Source: a virus
Lineage: Duplodnaviria; Heunggongvirae; Uroviricota; Caudoviricetes
DNA: 10,257 nucleotides
Direction: 5' to 3' (one strand)
IMG/VR virus record: IMGVR_UViG_2547132272_000016
Span: 1-10,257 of that record
Position 1 is the stretch's first letter. Each line of letters begins with the position of its first letter. Of the stretch, positions 82 to 9,147 are shown in pieces. The notes under the pieces are model-generated. The model was not told the origin of the DNA. It saw nothing but the letters and a program-made list of their open reading frames with translations, and ran no database searches. The translations under genes and the position numbers were made by a program.

Positions 82-1041
82 TTACTCCTTGTCCATTGCG
101 TACAGCCCATTAACCAGAGCAAACTGTGGCACCCCGTCCGCGATGAAAGTTGCATTAACTCCGCAGGCTTCGCGGATAGCGGGTGCCACAATCTCCGCTC
201 CTCCACCGACAACCATCACCCGCCCGTAACCCGAAAAACCCGCCAGCGCGCGGATCACGCGTTGTTTCAGTGTTTCTTCCTTTTCACGAATAACTGCCAT
301 CAGGCTGGCGTAATGCGCGTCATTGTGGATGTGCTGGCGCAGCCAGGCTTCATCATGGCGATGTTCGATAATGGTATTGGCGATGTGGTGACTGGTGCGC
401 ATACCGTTAGTGGCCATCACCGACAGTACGGCATCGGCCATCAGAGAAACGCCTACGTGTGGATCGCAAAACACCTGGCTGATACCTGCCAGTTGCCCCT
501 GAACCTTTGCCACATCCAGCGTGGTTCCGCCCAAATCCACAATCAGCAGGGATTCAAACGGACTCATGTCAGCCAGTGCCTTAAAGCCAGCCGGAATGGA
601 TTCAGGCATAACCCGCACGTTACGGATAGTGAATGCCTCGCCGTTCTGGTACTCCACCGGGCGCATAACGTTCGCTTTTTTGCGGCTGATGTTGGCCATG
701 TCCGGCTGTGCGTTTGTATCGAAATACTCGCTCAGTGGCAGGGTGACAACCACATCCACTTCCTGTGGCGTGATGCCTGATTTGACCAGCGCGTGATGAA
801 TGGCAATGACATTCACATCGCTGTACTGGTATTGCGTGTCGGTCGTCTGGATAAAGCGATCGCTGACCGGATCAAAACCATAGCGCACGCCATCAAGCAT
901 GTAGTTCGCGGGCTGCGTGCCACCGAACGGCGCAGACCATTCCGACTTGAAGCTGTTCGGGCTGATGGCGTTGCGGCGTTCGCCGTTCTCAGTCCATGCC
1001 AGCTTGATGTTGGTGGAGCCGTCGTCGATACAAATTTTCAT
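82..1041 (-). CDS. parM: Actin-like plasmid segregation ATPase ParM/StbA
   Basis: 319-aa ORF with ATG start and AAGGA Shine-Dalgarno 8 nt upstream. N-terminus MKICIDDGSTNIKLAW plus the blocks ISPNSFKSEW, YQYSDVNVIAIHHAL, VMPESIPAGF and DLGGTTLD match recalled R1 ParM/StbA motifs (actin-fold phosphate-1 DDGSTN and DxGGGT-type motifs). Confidence 0.88.
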   Translation of the reverse strand: MKICIDDGSTNIKLAWTENGERRNAISPNSFKSEWSAPFGGTQPANYMLDGVRYGFDPVSDRFIQTTDTQYQYSDVNVIAIHHALVKSGITPQEVDVVVTLPLSEYFDTNAQPDMANISRKKANVMRPVEYQNGEAFTIRNVRVMPESIPAGFKALADMSPFESLLIVDLGGTTLDVAKVQGQLAGISQVFCDPHVGVSLMADAVLSVMATNGMRTSHHIANTIIEHRHDEAWLRQHIHNDAHYASLMAVIREKEETLKQRVIRALAGFSGYGRVMVVGGGAEIVAPAIREACGVNATFIADGVPQFALVNGLYAMDKE

Positions 1042-3931: not shown

Positions 3932-4297
3932 TTACTTCGTCATGCCATTCAGAGTGTCACGGCAAACGGCAGCCAGCCGCTGAATCTCCAGCACAGTGTC
4001 TTCTGTGTCGGCATGGTGGTGTGTGATGCGGATACTGTCGGCAATCACATCGACGATCGCAGAGGATGGGCGCTGGTAAATGCCAATAACGGACGGGGTG
4101 CCGCCTTCAATGCGGTAAAGCCTGTAATTTCCCTCGTGGCTGTCAATCATGTAGCGACCATCAATAACAATCTTTCCGTCAGCGAGCTGCGGTACAGGCA
4201 GGGATTTCAGGTACATGTCATAACGGTCACGCACGCGAACGGCAAGATCACGCTCTGTGTTGAGCAGGTATTCAAGAAAGTCGTTGGCGAGAATCAT
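3932..4297 (-). CDS. Hypothetical early-operon protein (121 aa)
   Basis: C-terminal 121 codons of the 326-aa track ORF. Internal ATG at 4297 has an AAGAGGA Shine-Dalgarno 8 nt upstream and protein-like composition from there on; the stop lies 6 nt before the gene A start. The upstream 205 codons are S/T/P-rich and look non-coding. Confidence 0.55.
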   Translation of the reverse strand: MILANDFLEYLLNTERDLAVRVRDRYDMYLKSLPVPQLADGKIVIDGRYMIDSHEGNYRLYRIEGGTPSVIGIYQRPSSAIVDVIADSIRITHHHADTEDTVLEIQRLAAVCRDTLNGMTK

Positions 4298-4370
4298 TGC
4301 GGCAATCCTCTTTACTACAGATGTGCGAAGGCCTCCCGCCGCAAGGTGCAGGAAAGGCCCGGAACAGGAA

Positions 4371-4601
4371 TTAATGGAGTTTGTTTTGCTGCTGGATGAG
4401 ATCCTGAAGAGACAGGAGGTCTTCCGCCAGATAGCTGAATACAGCGGCGCAGTAGTCGGCTGAAATAGTGCTGTTGAGTCTGTGCAATGTGTTGGATTGC
4501 ATGATAAAGGCGATGTGTGCAGCGCGGGTGAGTCTGCGGTCGATTTCAGTCTGGATGTGACGACGCTCTGCGATAGCGCGGTGCTGTTTGCGGTTTGCCA
4601 T
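4371..4601 (-). CDS. Hypothetical small basic protein (76 aa)
   Basis: ATG with AAGAGG Shine-Dalgarno 8 nt upstream; charged N-terminus (MANRKQHRAIAERRH..). No family recognised. Confidence 0.55.
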   Translation of the reverse strand: MANRKQHRAIAERRHIQTEIDRRLTRAAHIAFIMQSNTLHRLNSTISADYCAAVFSYLAEDLLSLQDLIQQQNKLH

Positions 4602-4692
4602 GGTGTGGCCTCTTTGGTTGTAAGTTTTGAAAACTCACCATCCAGAGGTGGAAAACTCGGGGTGGTGAGACGTACAGGGTTTCCACAACCGG

Positions 4693-4716
4693 CAACCAAA
4701 GAACCCGGCCCGACCG
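4693..4716 (-). other. Stable hairpin with a UUCG tetraloop on the transcribed (-) strand, in a 322-bp non-coding gap
   Basis: Minus-strand RNA GGGGCCGAC-UUCG-GUCGGGCCGGG followed by UUCUUUGGUUG. Could be an attenuator, processing site or terminator. Confidence 0.3.
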
Positions 4717-4778
4717 AAGTCGGCCCCATACGCCCCACCATAATTCGTGTGCGAAAAAGACGTGGCGATACGGTACGC

Positions 4779-4801
4779 ACAAAAAAACCGCTGGCGCGGT
4801 T
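4779..4801 (-). terminator. Candidate rho-independent terminator or attenuator on the - strand
   Basis: Minus strand reads ACCGC-GCCA-GCGGT followed by TTTTTTTGTG, about 125 nt downstream of the 99-aa gene stop. The stem is short (4-5 bp), so this is weak. Confidence 0.3.
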
Positions 4802-4923
4802 GTGCGCTTTGGTTGTCAGCGGGGTGGAAATCCCGGCACCCGTTTTATGAGGTGCAGCGGAAATGTAACCTGACTGATTGCGGCATGGCAAGCGGTTTTT
4901 TTGTGTGTGCATGTTCTGGTTTC

Positions 4924-5223
4924 TTACTGGTTCAGAAAAAAATCAAAAACCTTGTCAATGCGTTGCAGCAGCTCTTGCTGTATTGCTTCCGGCGTTTCCG
5001 GTTCGCCTGGCACCTCCAATGTCGCGCAGAAATCAGCGATTTCATGATGGAGCGTCAGGCGAATGGCAGGAGCCGTGGTTCTGGCGTGCTCCAGCTCATC
5101 CAGCAATGCCAGCACAGCAGACGGCGAGAGCATTGCGCGAAATGCCAGTAATTTTTGAGGTGTTGCCATTCGTTGCAGGGCAAATGCCAGTTCGCGTAGC
5201 TTCTGGTGGTTGATGGTGCTCAT
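4924..5223 (-). CDS. Hypothetical protein (99 aa)
   Basis: ATG with GAAGGAAG Shine-Dalgarno; its start overlaps the upstream gene's stop in an ATGA. No family recognised. Confidence 0.6.
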   Translation of the reverse strand: MSTINHQKLRELAFALQRMATPQKLLAFRAMLSPSAVLALLDELEHARTTAPAIRLTLHHEIADFCATLEVPGEPETPEAIQQELLQRIDKVFDFFLNQ

Positions 5224-5486
5224 GTTCTGGCTTCCTTCAGTAGCTGGTTAAACATGTGAGTAAGTGGATTGCTACACCCGAACGGCATCGGGTTTACGTG
5301 GTAAGAAGCCTGGCCTCCAGTTTTGCGAGCGCGACCACCTGTGCTGCGGTTTGTTCTGATGACTAAGCCGCCGCGCCAAAGTTGGCGTAACTCAGCATTA
5401 ATGGCTGTGGTTGGAGTATTCAGTGCTGCGGCGATCTCTCCGCCGCTACACCCCGGATGAGTAGCGATGTAGTCCAGAATGGTCAT
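5220..5486 (-). CDS. Hypothetical small protein, possibly winged-helix DNA-binding (88 aa)
   Basis: ATG with AGGAG Shine-Dalgarno; ATGA overlap with the upstream gene. N-terminal MTILDYIATHPGCSGGEIAAALNTP...LRQLWRGGLVIR has the look of a winged HTH; this is inference only. Confidence 0.55.
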   Translation of the reverse strand: MTILDYIATHPGCSGGEIAAALNTPTTAINAELRQLWRGGLVIRTNRSTGGRARKTGGQASYHVNPMPFGCSNPLTHMFNQLLKEART

Positions 5487-6690: not shown

Positions 6691-7041
6691 TTATAAATCA
6701 GCTTGTTTAATGAAATTCTGTCCGCGCAGCAGACGATCAACCGTGCGCAGAGCTTCGTACAACGTGAAATCCTGTCCAAACTGATTGTCGCCGTTGCTCA
6801 GAGCAAAAATGCGGTTTCCGGTAAATGGGTTGCGTTGGCATCTGTGAACCACGATTCCAGCTTTCTCAATTAGCCAGGTGTGTTCACCAATTTGTTTTAC
6901 GGGATGGCCATCAGGTGTGGCGTGTGTTTCGCTCAGGCTGTAGCGAGAGCTGCTGCGTGATGCACTGGTGGCGAAACGGTTAGCGTGGCGTTCCGCCCCG
7001 TTGCGGAAGCGTTGCTGTGAAGAATTTCGTTGTTGCTTCAT
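6691..7041 (-). CDS. Hypothetical protein (116 aa; start uncertain, alternative ATG at 7089)
   Basis: ATG at 7041 is preceded by AGGA; the ORF's first ATG at 7089 has no Shine-Dalgarno. Basic S/R-rich N-terminus then a globular-looking C-terminus. Confidence 0.5.
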   Translation of the reverse strand: MKQQRNSSQQRFRNGAERHANRFATSASRSSSRYSLSETHATPDGHPVKQIGEHTWLIEKAGIVVHRCQRNPFTGNRIFALSNGDNQFGQDFTLYEALRTVDRLLRGQNFIKQADL

Positions 7042-7085
7042 ACAAAAATATCCTGCTGCTGTTGCGAATTTGTGCCGGGTTTTAG

Positions 7086-7117
7086 CCATGCCCGGCGCAT
7101 GGTTTTGTGGTATTTTT
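7086..7117 (+). terminator. Candidate + strand hairpin with U-tract (terminator or attenuator) upstream of the + strand accessory gene
   Basis: CCATGC-CCGGC-GCATGG stem-loop (7086-7102) followed by TTTTGTGGTATTTTT. An overlapping alternative stem GCCGGG-N11-CCCGGC (7074-7096) could compete with it. Confidence 0.25.
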
Positions 7118-7182
7118 CCACCGCCCGCAGTCTTGAAGGGGCTGTAAAGGGCGCGTGTTTAACCAACCACAAAGGAGTTGTT

Positions 7183-7650
7183 ATGGAATTAGATGCTTTT
7201 GTGTGTCTGCGAATTTTTGAAAAACACTGCGAGCGAGTTGCTGAATCCTATCGTGATGTGCTGGATAAAGAAACAGCCAACTCAGCATTTGTTGCTACTC
7301 GAGCATTAATTCTCCTTAAATTGGATTTGCTACTTGTCGAGTATCGAAGAAATATTGATTCCAAGTGTGTAGTCCTCTTCGGAAAAAATGTGCTTTATCA
7401 TTATCTTTTCACCCAAAAGGGTGTTTCATTGTCTGATGCCAAAAATATGTGTCTCCATGACATACTTATTGTTCTCTGGAATGATATTAATGCATATGTA
7501 ATACCAGAGCATGTATCCGAGCGTATCCAGATTCTTTATAAGCACGAGCTCTCATCTCCAATGCCTGATTTAAGTTATGAAGATGAAAGTCTGTTGCACT
7601 TTAAGGATTCTGCTTGGGATTTTTATCCTGCCGATACACGACTGAATTAA
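7183..7650 (+). CDS. Accessory protein of unknown function (155 aa), opposite strand to the early operon, low GC
   Basis: ATG at 7183 with AAGGAG Shine-Dalgarno 6 nt upstream (the track ORF extends upstream only via a TTG). AT-rich codon usage unlike the flanking phage genes. Its 3' end overlaps the convergent 202-aa gene by about 47 nt. Confidence 0.6.
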   Translation: MELDAFVCLRIFEKHCERVAESYRDVLDKETANSAFVATRALILLKLDLLLVEYRRNIDSKCVVLFGKNVLYHYLFTQKGVSLSDAKNMCLHDILIVLWNDINAYVIPEHVSERIQILYKHELSSPMPDLSYEDESLLHFKDSAWDFYPADTRLN

Positions 7651-8209
7651 GAAACTCATTGTTTCTATCTATTTCAGCCTGGTAGGCCTCTAACTCATGC
7701 CGTAATTGTTGTTGTCTTAGTGGTAACCTGTTGCGGCATTTCAATTCTGCTACAACGGTTTCCAAAAAATTTATCAGTTCTTCATCAGTGTATGAGCCAG
7801 CATAAATGTACGGTTTAGTGTTAGCGCATGTACAGTCTGCTGTTTCTTTAATGAGCATTGATTCGTCATCCATAATCTGTCGATAAAGTTCAAATGCTTC
7901 TTCGGCAGGAAACCTGAGCATGACGCCGCATACTGGTTCTAAAACCAATCCGAACGTTCCCTTTGCGTTATCCCGACAAAAATGGCCGTATTCATCGTCG
8001 GGATGCAGGGTGGCATCTTTCAAATCTTCGCCATTCTGAAGCTTTGATTTAAATGCCATCAGGTCAGCGAACGTTCTGTGTAATTCGTGGTAGTCAATGC
8101 TGATTTCAACCTGTGGTTTGCCCGGAAAAACCAGCAAAAGCTTCTGGTGTGGTTTTTCGTTTTTCAGGGTTTCCAGTCGTTCCAGTAGCGCTTTATTTTT
8201 GTGATTCAT
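7601..8209 (-). CDS. Hypothetical protein (202 aa), second gene of the leftward early transcript, low GC
   Basis: ATG with AAGAGG Shine-Dalgarno about 10 nt upstream. No family recognised. Its 3' end overlaps the + strand 155-aa gene. Confidence 0.6.
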   Translation of the reverse strand: MNHKNKALLERLETLKNEKPHQKLLLVFPGKPQVEISIDYHELHRTFADLMAFKSKLQNGEDLKDATLHPDDEYGHFCRDNAKGTFGLVLEPVCGVMLRFPAEEAFELYRQIMDDESMLIKETADCTCANTKPYIYAGSYTDEELINFLETVVAELKCRNRLPLRQQQLRHELEAYQAEIDRNNEFLNSVVYRQDKNPKQNP

Positions 8210-8313
8210 TCTACTGTTACCTCTTTTAACTCATTCAGGCAGTGTGATATAGCCCACTAACTGCCCGTGTTTGAAATAACGGCGACGAAAATAATGTGTT
8301 AACAATAAAGCAA

Positions 8314-8739
8314 TCATGCGGCCCTCGCTTTTTTAGTTCTGCTTCGTTTGCTATGTGTCGGCTTAAATAAAAACAGGCGGTTTTCCCAGTCATGCCATTC
8401 CTGCGGAGCGTTTTCGATCAAGCGATCACATGCTTCATCCCACGCTTTTCTGTTGATGTAGAGTTCAGCGTTTCCTCCTGGCCTAAGAGGGTCTGTCATA
8501 TACACGGCTGGCAATTTCCCTGCTTTAGCCATGCTCACAATGGCGCTAACTGTTTTGCCGATATACAGCGCAAATCCTTCTTTTGACAGGAGATGCGAGG
8601 GATTTTCTGAAAGTCGAATTTCTTCACGTTCACGTGCTTTGCGTTCTGTTTTTTGATGCTCCCCTTCTGGCATTTCTGACAGGCGATCGCATCGTGTTCC
8701 GCAAAGTGACTCAGGCGCGTTTTGAGTGCTTTCTTGCAT
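8314..8739 (-). CDS. cox: Cox/Apl-like HTH regulator (excisionase/early-operon repressor type), unusually long
   Basis: First gene leftward of the switch region, the position of P2 cox and 186 apl. Central HTH-like segment GFALYIGKTVSAIVSMAKAGKLPAVYMTDP resembles what I recall of P2 Cox. Start placed at ATG 8739 (GGAGG Shine-Dalgarno 7 nt upstream) rather than the track's GTG at 8778. At 141 aa versus ~90 for P2 Cox it has a charged N-terminal extension; it could alternatively be a CII-type regulator. Confidence 0.55.
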   Translation of the reverse strand: MQESTQNAPESLCGTRCDRLSEMPEGEHQKTERKAREREEIRLSENPSHLLSKEGFALYIGKTVSAIVSMAKAGKLPAVYMTDPLRPGGNAELYINRKAWDEACDRLIENAPQEWHDWENRLFLFKPTHSKRSRTKKARAA

Positions 8740-8812
8740 CTGATATCCTCCGCCATTGGTGCTCTTTCTAATTGGCACTAGTTGGAACCACTTAGAACAT
8801 TTGTTTGCTGTT

Positions 8813-8840
8813 CATATGTGGTGTTAATCTACACATATGT
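8813..8840. promoter_or_regulatory. Candidate repressor operator: CATATGTG-N11-CACATATG (also two direct CATATGT copies 20 bp apart)
   Basis: The two half-sites flank the proposed -10 of the leftward early promoter, analogous to P2 C operators flanking the Pe -10 and 186 CI operators at pR. Confidence 0.4.
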
Positions 8841-8853
8841 AGGAGTTTGTCAA
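8826..8853 (-). promoter_or_regulatory. Candidate early lytic promoter (Pe-like), transcribing leftward toward cox
   Basis: Perfect -35 TTGACA on the - strand (8853-8848), 16-nt spacer, -10 TAGATT (8831-8826). The -35 abuts the C start codon, so the early transcript would be antisense to the C 5' end. Confidence 0.4.
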
Positions 8854-9147
8854 ATGGACATTCCTCAAAAAATTCGCGTCATGCGCAAATCTGAAGATCT
8901 CACTCAGCGGGAATTCGCTGATATGATTGGAATTTCTTATTCTGCTCTGACCAGTTATGAGTATGGTCGTAACCTTCCTGGCCTCGAGATCACTATCAAG
9001 CTTTTCAAGCACCCGAGATTTTCTAAATACCGCGACTGGTTTCTGTTTGATGAAGTTGAACCCAAGGCCGGGCAGGTTGTACCGGCTCTCGCACACATTG
9101 GGCAAGGCGAAGCGGAATCATCCCGCTCCGGCAAGAAAACTGGTTAA
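8854..9147 (+). CDS. C: P2 C-type immunity repressor
   Basis: Start at internal ATG 8854 with AGGAG Shine-Dalgarno 8 nt upstream. The 97-aa product matches recalled P2 C features: KIRVMRKSEDLTQREFADMIGISYSALTSYEYGR and the C-terminal PALAHIGQ...SGKKTG. Lies immediately upstream of int on the same strand, as in P2. Confidence 0.85.
   Translation: MDIPQKIRVMRKSEDLTQREFADMIGISYSALTSYEYGRNLPGLEITIKLFKHPRFSKYRDWFLFDEVEPKAGQVVPALAHIGQGEAESSRSGKKTG

Follow-up and report, generated by a model that had tools for sequence, protein, structure and literature searches.

Organization of the gap

The DNA analysed here, hereafter called the window, is a 10,257-nucleotide (nt) stretch of viral DNA, IMG/VR record IMGVR_UViG_2547132272_000016. 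Sequence comparison places it in a P88-like phage of the P2 type (Xuanwuvirus). The early operon of this phage is on the minus strand. It is interrupted by a gap at 4602-4923, located between the end, at 4924, of an open reading frame (ORF) of 99 amino acids (aa) (5223..4924, minus strand) and the start, at 4601, of a 76-aa ORF (4601..4371, minus strand). A 401-bp region at this locus has 90-97% identity in phage P88 and its relatives, and it was found in 1169 of 5426 complete Escherichia coli (E. coli) genomes. Phage and RefSeq records give this region no feature, or label it as an 'ash family' pseudogene, a 'transcriptional regulator' or a hypothetical protein on the opposite strand; it is never labelled as RNA genes. 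A search of the whole window with all Rfam models gave exactly two matches, isrK (RF01394) and C4 (RF01695). Both are inside the gap, cover the full length of their models and score above the curated thresholds. The gap thus holds two small-RNA genes, which stand together with a predicted promoter and a set of complementary segments.

4891-4862, minus strand: predicted internal sigma-70-type promoter for IsrK, composed of TTGCCA, an 18-nt spacer and TACATT, with its predicted start at G4855
4855..4781, minus strand: IsrK RNA (Rfam RF01394), with three hairpins, the last of which is a Rho-independent terminator (stem 4801-4786, U7 4787-4781)
4830-4824, minus strand: a1 target (UUUCCAC), in the loop of IsrK hairpin 2, complement of C4 a'
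4815-4807, minus strand: b1 target (CAACCAAAG), in the IsrK linker, complement of C4 b'
4745..4658, minus strand: C4 antisense RNA (Rfam RF01695), with a 17-bp closing stem, hairpin 1 (4723-4710, UUCG loop) and hairpin 2 (4709-4688)
4702-4693, minus strand: antisense segment b' (UCUUUGGUUG), in the 12-nt loop of C4 hairpin 2
4686-4680, minus strand: antisense segment a' (GUGGAAA), in the single-stranded junction between C4 hairpin 2 and the closing stem
4654-4648, minus strand: a2 target (UUUCCAC), 7 nt past the predicted C4 3' end, complement of a'
4620-4611, minus strand: b2 target (CAACCAAAGA), complement of b', overlapping the Shine-Dalgarno sequence AAGAGG (4614-4609) of the 76-aa gene
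4601..4371, minus strand: gene of the 76-aa protein, predicted to be the first under C4 control, a remote homologue of P4 epsilon (helper-derepression/antirepressor protein)

The IsrK RNA and its promoter

The isrK match scores 64.3 bits against a gathering score of 50 (E = 3e-12) and covers model positions 1-77 of 77. The fold of the RNA has a z-score of -2.4. In the alignment of related loci, 89% of the cells at paired positions are paired, 8 pairs carry double changes, and 0 of 500 shuffles score as high. Hairpin 1 co-varies and the terminator is conserved. The isrK element is located immediately 5' of C4 in 16 of the 20 loci scanned.

The promoter-like site at 4891-4862 is the sole one that our scan found in 4300-5300, with 9 of 12 matches. 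The TTGxxx and TAxxxT boxes lie at a constant distance from the IsrK 5' end, 6-7 nt upstream of it, in all 19 loci examined, P4 among them. In the P1 record, the -10 box of P1c4 is 7 nt ahead of the start position of the isrK model. The site is the equivalent of P4 PLE and of P1 P1c4/P51b. According to the sequence scans, IsrK has its own promoter and its own Rho-independent terminator, which would delimit a short primary transcript. The terminator hairpin with its U7 tail is of the type typical of Hfq-binding small RNAs. Judged by its sequence, IsrK is the homologue of the P4 seqA RNA and of the P1 a1-b1 leader.

The C4 RNA

The C4 match has a score of 80.5 bits against a gathering score of 45 (E = 5.7e-15) and extends over model positions 1-87 of 87. 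Its minimum free energy (MFE) fold is the Rfam consensus fold (z = -3.4). To compare C4 between loci, C4-like sequences were pulled from viral contigs using the degenerate core pattern CTTCGGNNNNGCCGGNTTC and then filtered by their closing stem, an exact 8-mer stem filter having proved too strict and been replaced. About 70% of the viral-contig matches to CTTCGGNNNNGCCGGNTTC were chance matches in G+C-rich coding DNA, which the closing-stem requirement removed. The remaining set comprises 27 distinct C4 variants, including those of the window, P88 and P4. Over 26 sequences, the 27 base pairs of C4 are standard in 95.9% of cases, 14 of them are compensated on both sides, and none of 500 shuffles reaches this score; controls in which the partner was slid gave 32-50%. 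Helix 3, which is fixed by the search pattern itself, is uninformative for covariation.

Alignment to the annotated ends of P1 C4 predicts a mature C4 of 79 nt, at about 4739-4661, that ends in CCACC. The prerequisites for RNase P, namely an acceptor-like closing stem ending in CCACC and aligned with the annotated P1 ends, can be recognized in the sequence. ARAGORN found no tRNA or tmRNA in the window. By sequence homology, this C4 is the counterpart of the P4 CI RNA.

Antisense segments and their target sites

The segments a' and b' of C4 each have two complements, one in IsrK (a1, b1) and one downstream of C4 (a2, b2). The 9-mer CAACCAAAG or its complement is found in 3 copies in the 10-kb window, where 0.14 are expected, and all of them are inside the gap. 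The heptamer TTTCCAC is likewise enriched. A repeat finder independently recovered the same a/b pairs, with a1 as its repeat I4 and b1 as I5. Exact complements of a' (7-8 nt) and of b' (8-11 nt) are present at fixed offsets in the 27 distinct loci, a2 at +33 to +37 and b2 at +60 to +69, with a1 and b1 in the upstream RNA. Over 15 different a'/b' specificities are represented among these loci, each locus with complements that match its own segments exactly; when segments and targets were paired across loci as a control, 0.6-5.5% of the pairings reached the own-locus median length. At the level of sequence, this covariation of loops with their targets is the decisive result of the comparative test. 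By analogy with known systems, differing a'/b' segments in otherwise similar phages would define heteroimmune types.

In nearly all loci, b2 ends 7-11 nt ahead of the start codon of the first downstream ORF. This ORF falls into three classes, the 76-aa MANRKQ type found in the window, a 64-65-aa P4 Kil type and a 120-214-aa Rha/Ant type. The MFE structure of the full 266-nt leader (z = -3.6) contains a1/a' and b1/b' helices formed in cis.

Two of the loci, L027 (4574-4762, 5233-5421) and L029 (3562-3750, 4218-4406), have two complete tandem isrK-C4 modules about 660 nt apart. The tandem modules differ in their a'/b' specificities, and each is followed by a Rha/Ant-type ORF.

A simpler description of the gap would be a plain operon boundary, made of a terminator for the upstream unit, a promoter for the replication genes and an incidental hairpin, with no antisense regulation. 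Simple scans do find terminator-like and promoter-like sites. However, the promoter is upstream of the terminator and not after it, and each of the RNAs matches a curated covariance model. The three copies of the 9-mer or its complement and the loop-target covariation over 27 loci contradict a plain boundary, which we consider extremely improbable.

The first-pass annotation of this sequence had described three features in the gap, and all of them are present on the minus strand in the order it gave. They are a terminator-like stem, AACCGCGCCAGCGGUU (4801-4786), that runs into a U7 tract (4787-4781); a GC-rich hairpin with a UUCG cap, CCGAC-UUCG-GUCGG (4723-4710); and the Shine-Dalgarno sequence of the next gene, AAGAGG, 7 nt ahead of ATG 4601. 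Its view that these are genuine structured elements agrees with the covariance-model scores, the folding z-scores of C4 and of the leader, and the conservation of both structures by covariation. Regarding their identity, the terminator is the 3' hairpin of IsrK and the UUCG hairpin is one inner hairpin of a larger tRNA-like RNA of about 79 nt. The Shine-Dalgarno sequence is, by its predicted pairing, itself the antisense target. The annotation had missed that these parts belong to catalogued families and to an antisense immunity module with co-varying targets. It had offered an attenuator or anti-termination point, an internal promoter and a small RNA as alternatives. The small RNA is borne out twice, by IsrK and C4, and the internal promoter by its conservation. 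The attenuator can be retained by homology with P4 and P1, as a point of controlled termination and translation block before the replication genes. What does not hold is the choice between the three, each of which is one piece of a single known system.

The epsilon-like gene downstream of the gap

BLASTP aligns the 76-aa protein to P4 epsilon with 29% over 66 aa (E = 2e-8), and hhalign gives this relationship a probability of 93.8%. The protein matches phrog_3688 over its full length, and its homologue in phage P88 is annotated 'derepression protein'. A comparison of its family with the sequences of the Protein Data Bank gave nothing meaningful (best E = 0.65), and NCBIfam had no match for this protein, for the 326-aa ORF described below or for the neighbouring genes. 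The replication endonuclease gene, of the gpA type (425.8 bits), is two genes beyond the 76-aa gene.

A stretch with the composition of a Rho-utilisation region is found inside the 76-aa gene.

4570-4441, minus strand: candidate Rho-utilisation region, C-rich and G-poor (C 35-38%, G 14-18%, C/G up to 2.7)

Its position is equivalent to that of P4 timm (X51522 8365-8209), which is downstream of CI (8507-8420).

The reading frame across the module

The gap is spanned by one long ORF, whose frame is referred to as f0.

3932..4912, minus strand: eta-like ORF, frame f0, 326 aa, with its ATG at 4912, 11 nt past the stop of the 99-aa gene (4924) and upstream of the -35 box (4891)

This ORF runs through IsrK, C4 and all target sites, and then across the 76-aa gene out of frame. 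Its residues 16-108 match the Pfam family Phage_ASH (PF10554) with a marginal score of 28.0 bits against a cut-off of 26. Residues 12-119 match PHROG 'transcriptional regulator' families and residues 206-326 match phrog_3237. In 23 of the 27 related loci, no stop interrupts f0 anywhere in IsrK, C4 or the target sites; the two remaining frames are short. The f0 start codon is always upstream of the conserved internal promoter. The four loci in which f0 is closed (L030, L036, L064 and L087) retain C4, with single-base indels inside it. With an ORF of this type across it, the gap is probably also translated, and its description as non-coding is probably wrong. Nor is it the only long gap of the operon, as had been proposed: the interval 7090-7600 has no minus-strand ORF of at least 60 aa, and a further spacer of 73 nt is found at 4370-4298.

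The 76-aa ORF is in the -1 frame relative to f0, and each f0 codon begins at the second base of a codon of that ORF. Across the 76-aa gene, f0 is stop-free in 9 of 9 variants, with a synonymous-shuffle probability of 0.01-0.30 per variant; the other alternative frame across this gene (4371-4601) has 1-4 stops. The pattern suggests that read-through translation over a genuine gene, the 76-aa one, is selected for. The end of f0 overlaps the next gene by an ATGA in most P88-type loci. Only in the window does a 1-nt insertion fuse f0 with the phrog_3237 gene. The 121-aa phrog_3237 protein shows no similarity to P4 ORF151 (E = 0.16).

The insertion sits in the 73-nt spacer 4298-4370, and it is unique to the window among the five P88-type loci compared. 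In these five loci the spacer has about 100% identity over about 60 nt, even beside diverged flanking genes. It contains a GGCCU...AGGCC hairpin, yet its fold is no better than that of shuffled sequences (z = -0.7).

The Phage_ASH match raises the question of what this family describes. In the RefSeq record of P4 (NC_001609, L123 8168-8584), a 137-aa coding sequence named 'cI gene product, transcriptional repressor' lies over the CI RNA, and the record has no RNA feature there. This old 'cI protein' coding sequence represents the eta frame where it crosses the CI RNA. It scores 59.7 bits on Phage_ASH, so the frame on which the family is anchored overlaps RNA genes. We considered that Phage_ASH might be a spurious family derived from translated RNA genes. 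This view was softened because the frame is open in most loci and translation of P4 eta has been reported (PMC10111431); the amino-acid conservation is still weak. The family name would thus describe a frame translated across RNA genes, and an activity of its own protein is putative.

If the functional product of the gap were instead an Ash/Eta-family regulator protein made from ATG 4912, the RNA-family matches would be secondary to coding conservation. The ORF is open in most loci, reaches the Phage_ASH cut-off, matches the PHROG regulator families, and is annotated as a 205-aa regulator in some records. However, conservation obeys RNA rules, with compensatory changes in the stems and loops that co-vary with distant targets. 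The gap translation has no significant similarity to P4 Eta (E = 0.07), against scores of 61-80 bits for both RNAs, and the frame-closed loci keep C4 with indels inside. From the weak protein similarity and the retention of C4 in the frame-closed loci, it follows that the conserved information is in the RNA. Furthermore, P1 has the RNA module without such an ORF, the immunity factor of P4 is an RNA (PMC3632133, PMC10111431), and in RefSeq E. coli genomes the homologue of the window ORF is flagged as a partial 'ash family protein' pseudogene. A regulator protein as the main product is very unlikely. The property of f0 that is selected seems to be that it stays open.

A candidate antiterminator in P88-type loci

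Two further segments, complementary to each other, bracket the IsrK promoter and gene.

4908-4888, minus strand: upstream arm of the candidate antiterminator (ACACACAAAAAAACCGCUUGC, 21 nt), upstream of the IsrK start and overlapping the -35 box
4795-4775, minus strand: downstream partner of the arm, consisting of the 3' arm of the IsrK terminator, the U tract and GUGCGU

The two segments form an inverted repeat, I2, of 21 nt with 90% complementarity. The upstream arm is contained only in transcripts that begin upstream of the IsrK promoter. For a transcript 4930..4772, the MFE structure uses the long-range helix between the arms (z = -4.8). In this transcript the pair probability of the terminator is about 0, and the structure is 10.6 kcal/mol better than the best one that keeps the terminator. 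For a transcript from 4855, the pair probability of the terminator is 1.0. The folding models thus predict that upstream transcripts would sequester the IsrK terminator and that transcripts from the internal promoter would form it. The arm is present in all P88-type loci, with a duplex energy of about -27 kcal/mol, and it is absent from P4-type and Rha/Ant-type loci.

Comparison with known systems

The elements of the gap have counterparts in phages P4, P1/P7 and Gifsy-1. The statements on the P4 mechanism given here are drawn from secondary descriptions and from the P4 and P1 GenBank annotations. IsrK has been equated with seqA and C4 with CI, in what has been called an 'IsrK-C4 immunity system' (PMC3632133). 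In P4, interactions between CI and seqA end the internal-promoter transcript early (PMC10111431). Only transcripts from the upstream late promoter yield full-length Eta; the eta start is upstream of the internal promoter, and translation prevents termination (PMC10111431).

The P4 immunity region contains both Rfam models in the same order and with similar scores (isrK 60.8 and C4 74.9 in P4, 64.3 and 80.5 in the window). The C4 match at 8507..8420 corresponds to the CI RNA and the isrK match at 8692..8615 to the seqA region. As in the window, there is a constitutive-type internal promoter right before IsrK/seqA, and a'/b' have complements both upstream and downstream. In both, an ORF begins upstream of the internal promoter beside the preceding stop and stays open through the RNAs. 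We reconstructed P4 eta at 8761..8168 (197 codons), a position in which it overlaps the preceding gene's stop codon. Downstream, both have a gene of the epsilon family followed by a replication gene, P4 having two small ORFs after epsilon ('helper derepression protein'). However, the window belongs to a complete P2-type phage and not to a satellite with an alpha primase. This phage uses rolling-circle replication by gpA and also has Cox, an integrase and a C repressor of 121 aa (8782-9147). The first C4-controlled ORF in the window is epsilon-like and out of frame with the eta-like ORF, while in P4 it is kil, nested in frame within eta. The 21-nt upstream arm that is complementary to the terminator is found in the P88 type only.

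The immI region of P1/P7 has the same order of elements, with the promoter, a1, b1, a 77-nt C4, a2, b2 and the first ORF (icd and ant in the P1 record). P1 C4 belongs to the same RNA family (68.8 bits), and b2 adjoins the ribosome-binding site. In P1 and P7, c4 blocks the ribosome-binding site of ant and determines heteroimmunity (PMC12197685). The controlled operon has an antirepressor-type function, as predicted for the window, and heteroimmune variants differ in a'/b'. On the other hand, the P1 leader matches c4-a1b1 (51 bits) and isrK only weakly (35 bits, under 50). P1 has no eta-like ORF across the module and it has a C1 operator in the promoter region. The downstream P1 genes, icd and ant1/2, are unrelated to the 76-aa protein of the window.

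In Salmonella, the Gifsy-1 locus isrK - orf45 (STnc1160) - anrP has an IsrK with its own promoter and a leaky terminator, followed by a C4-like processed RNA and then by an antirepressor gene. IsrK exists there as a short RNA and as a read-through mRNA that contains the processed downstream RNA; IsrK is a structural homologue of seqA, and STnc1160 is the processed RNA (PMC4825925). In Gifsy-1 lysogens, IsrK and STnc1160 are highly expressed and the lytic genes are silent (PMC7067206). A pairing in cis of the central part of IsrK with the RNA downstream is predicted for the window too. However, Gifsy-1 is a lambdoid prophage in which an antirepressor of the Rha/Ant type is the target, its published mechanism puts the emphasis on activation in trans by IsrK, and the link to the antiterminator AntQ has no counterpart in the window.

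Regarding Phage_ASH and P4 Eta, the translation of the gap reaches the family cut-off and RefSeq names the homologues 'ash family protein'. Here the difference is that the signal is carried by RNA structure and target complementarity, with weak amino-acid similarity. In layout, the module agrees with P1 immI (a1-b1-c4-a2-b2-icd-ant) and, better still, with the P4 immunity region (seqA-CI-seqC).

The Gifsy-1 data also provide a different account of the window, in which control would be positive. The short IsrK would act in trans, pairing via a1/b1 with a'/b' of the read-through RNA or titrating free C4, and would thereby switch on the 76-aa gene and those that follow; the IsrK level would trigger induction. 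This overlaps with repression by C4 and differs in which RNA is the decisive effector. In Gifsy-1, IsrK supplied in trans raises the translation of anrP more than 100-fold by remodelling the isrK-orf45 leader, and deletion of the IsrK promoter abolishes induction (PMC4825925). The window leader has an MFE structure with a1/a' and b1/b' paired in cis that resembles the inactive 'structure A' (PMC4825925), and the terminator with its U tail fits an Hfq-binding small RNA. However, the covariation of a2/b2 with a'/b' is no less strict than that of a1/b1, and b2 is on the ribosome-binding site. These two observations argue for direct repression by C4, as in P1 and P4. Moreover, the organization of the downstream genes is P4-like and not Gifsy-like. 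We consider it somewhat unlikely that IsrK is the decisive effector.

The diversity of specificities suggests a further alternative, in which the module would serve mainly in conflicts between mobile elements. C4 from a prophage would act in trans against incoming P88-type phages or P4-like satellites of the same a/b specificity, and the epsilon-like protein would derepress other resident P2-like prophages. Many a'/b' types are found on near-identical backbones, as in the heteroimmune P1 and P7, and some loci have two tandem modules of different specificity. P4-like satellites, lambdoid phages and P2-like phages all carry these RNA families, and P4 epsilon acts on the repressor of the helper, according to the annotation of the P4 record. 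Such a role was raised as a speculation by Barquist et al. (PMC3632133). However, the targets are in cis, in the phage's own operon and directly before its own replication gene, so self-regulation needs no extra assumption. A module devoted mainly to conflict is unlikely, and we favour repression of the phage's own early operon by C4.

Proposed mechanism

We conclude that the gap is, with good confidence, an antisense-RNA immunity module of the P4/P1 type in the early operon of a P88-like (P2-type, Xuanwuvirus) prophage, working as follows. The sequences and their covariation come from this analysis, while the dynamics are modelled on P4, P1 and Gifsy-1. In the lysogen, the internal promoter would be constitutive and most of its transcripts would end at the IsrK terminator, giving the 75-nt IsrK. 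Read-through transcripts would be processed to the C4 of about 79 nt, with an RNase P cut at the 5' end of the tRNA-like closing stem. C4 would pair with a2/b2, and also with a1/b1, on new transcripts and would block the ribosome-binding site and the translation of the epsilon-like gene. The untranslated RNA would then be ended prematurely, probably by Rho in the C-rich stretch 4570-4441. In this way the antirepressor-like protein, the next gene and the replication gene A would be kept off. When the early promoter is derepressed, ribosomes that have finished the 99-aa gene would reinitiate at ATG 4912. As with P4 eta, they would then translate the eta-like frame over the whole of IsrK, C4 and the target sites. 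In these early-promoter transcripts, the P88-type arm 4908-4888 would pair with the 3' half of the IsrK terminator and prevent termination.

Several points weigh against this mechanism. All the steps past sequence complementarity are taken over from homologous systems. In Gifsy-1, over-expressed IsrK activates the downstream genes, and constitutive STnc1160, the C4 homologue, did not counteract it (PMC4825925). By analogy, a simple picture in which C4 represses may be incomplete, and IsrK may also act positively in trans. ATG 4912 has no obvious Shine-Dalgarno sequence. The 76-aa protein scores 22.1 bits on the Pfam family Derepression, under the cut-off of 27, and its antirepressor role, assigned by sequence homology, is putative. 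The Rho-dependent terminator in 4570-4441 is a candidate suggested by base composition alone. Both arms of the antiterminator are invariant across P88-type loci, which precludes a covariation test. Moreover, the antiterminator is an equilibrium thermodynamic prediction, and f0 translation over the upstream arm could interfere with it.

A more specific proposal is that P88-type P2-like phages have reworked the P4 cassette so that transcripts are sorted by their start site. In transcripts from the early promoter, the arm would sequester the IsrK terminator, and translation of the eta-like frame, which stays open, out of frame, across the epsilon-like gene to the start of the next gene, would serve purely for anti-termination. 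Transcripts from the internal promoter, in which the arm is missing, would end as IsrK or come under the control of C4. We put this forward tentatively, as somewhat less probable than its opposite. If it is true, P2-like helper phages, and not satellites alone, would run a second, RNA-based immunity layer that gates an antirepressor and the replication gene.

The module introduces no new principle: both IsrK and antisense immunity of the C4/CI kind have been known for decades and are represented in Rfam. Only the P88-specific antiterminator arm and the out-of-frame read-through ORF may be of specialist interest. Our literature search found nothing linking P2-like phages or Peduoviridae with IsrK or C4. 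Recognition of the module accounts for what looked like a hole in the early operon of P88-like phages and identifies the 76-aa 'hypothetical protein' as a gated, epsilon-like product. It also makes two points testable, namely that P2-type helper phages share the RNA immunity logic of P4 satellites, and that the P88 type adds a start-site-dependent arm sequestering the terminator and an out-of-frame read-through ORF. The practical value is in annotation, given the number of complete E. coli genomes that carry the region.

Other observations

Further Rfam elements are found near the C4 modules of other loci. These are an ALIL pseudoknot (L089 9494-9610, 119 bits), a TwoAYGGAY RNA (L064 2832-2951, 58.9 bits) and an int-alpA RNA (L061 7978-8039, 47.6 bits).

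Directly downstream of gene A, the window has a gene for a ParM-type actin-like partition protein (82-1041, minus strand; StbA_N 274 bits, ParM_N 231 bits). Its presence in a phage that bears an integrase may indicate an option of plasmid-like maintenance. The region 7030-8300, which includes the interval 7090-7600 mentioned above, departs from the tight packing of the minus strand. It contains a plus-strand ORF of 206 aa (7030..7650) with only a weak PHROG match and a minus-strand ORF of 202 aa (8209..7601) with no match in Pfam, PHROG or NCBIfam. This region may be inserted cargo (a moron).

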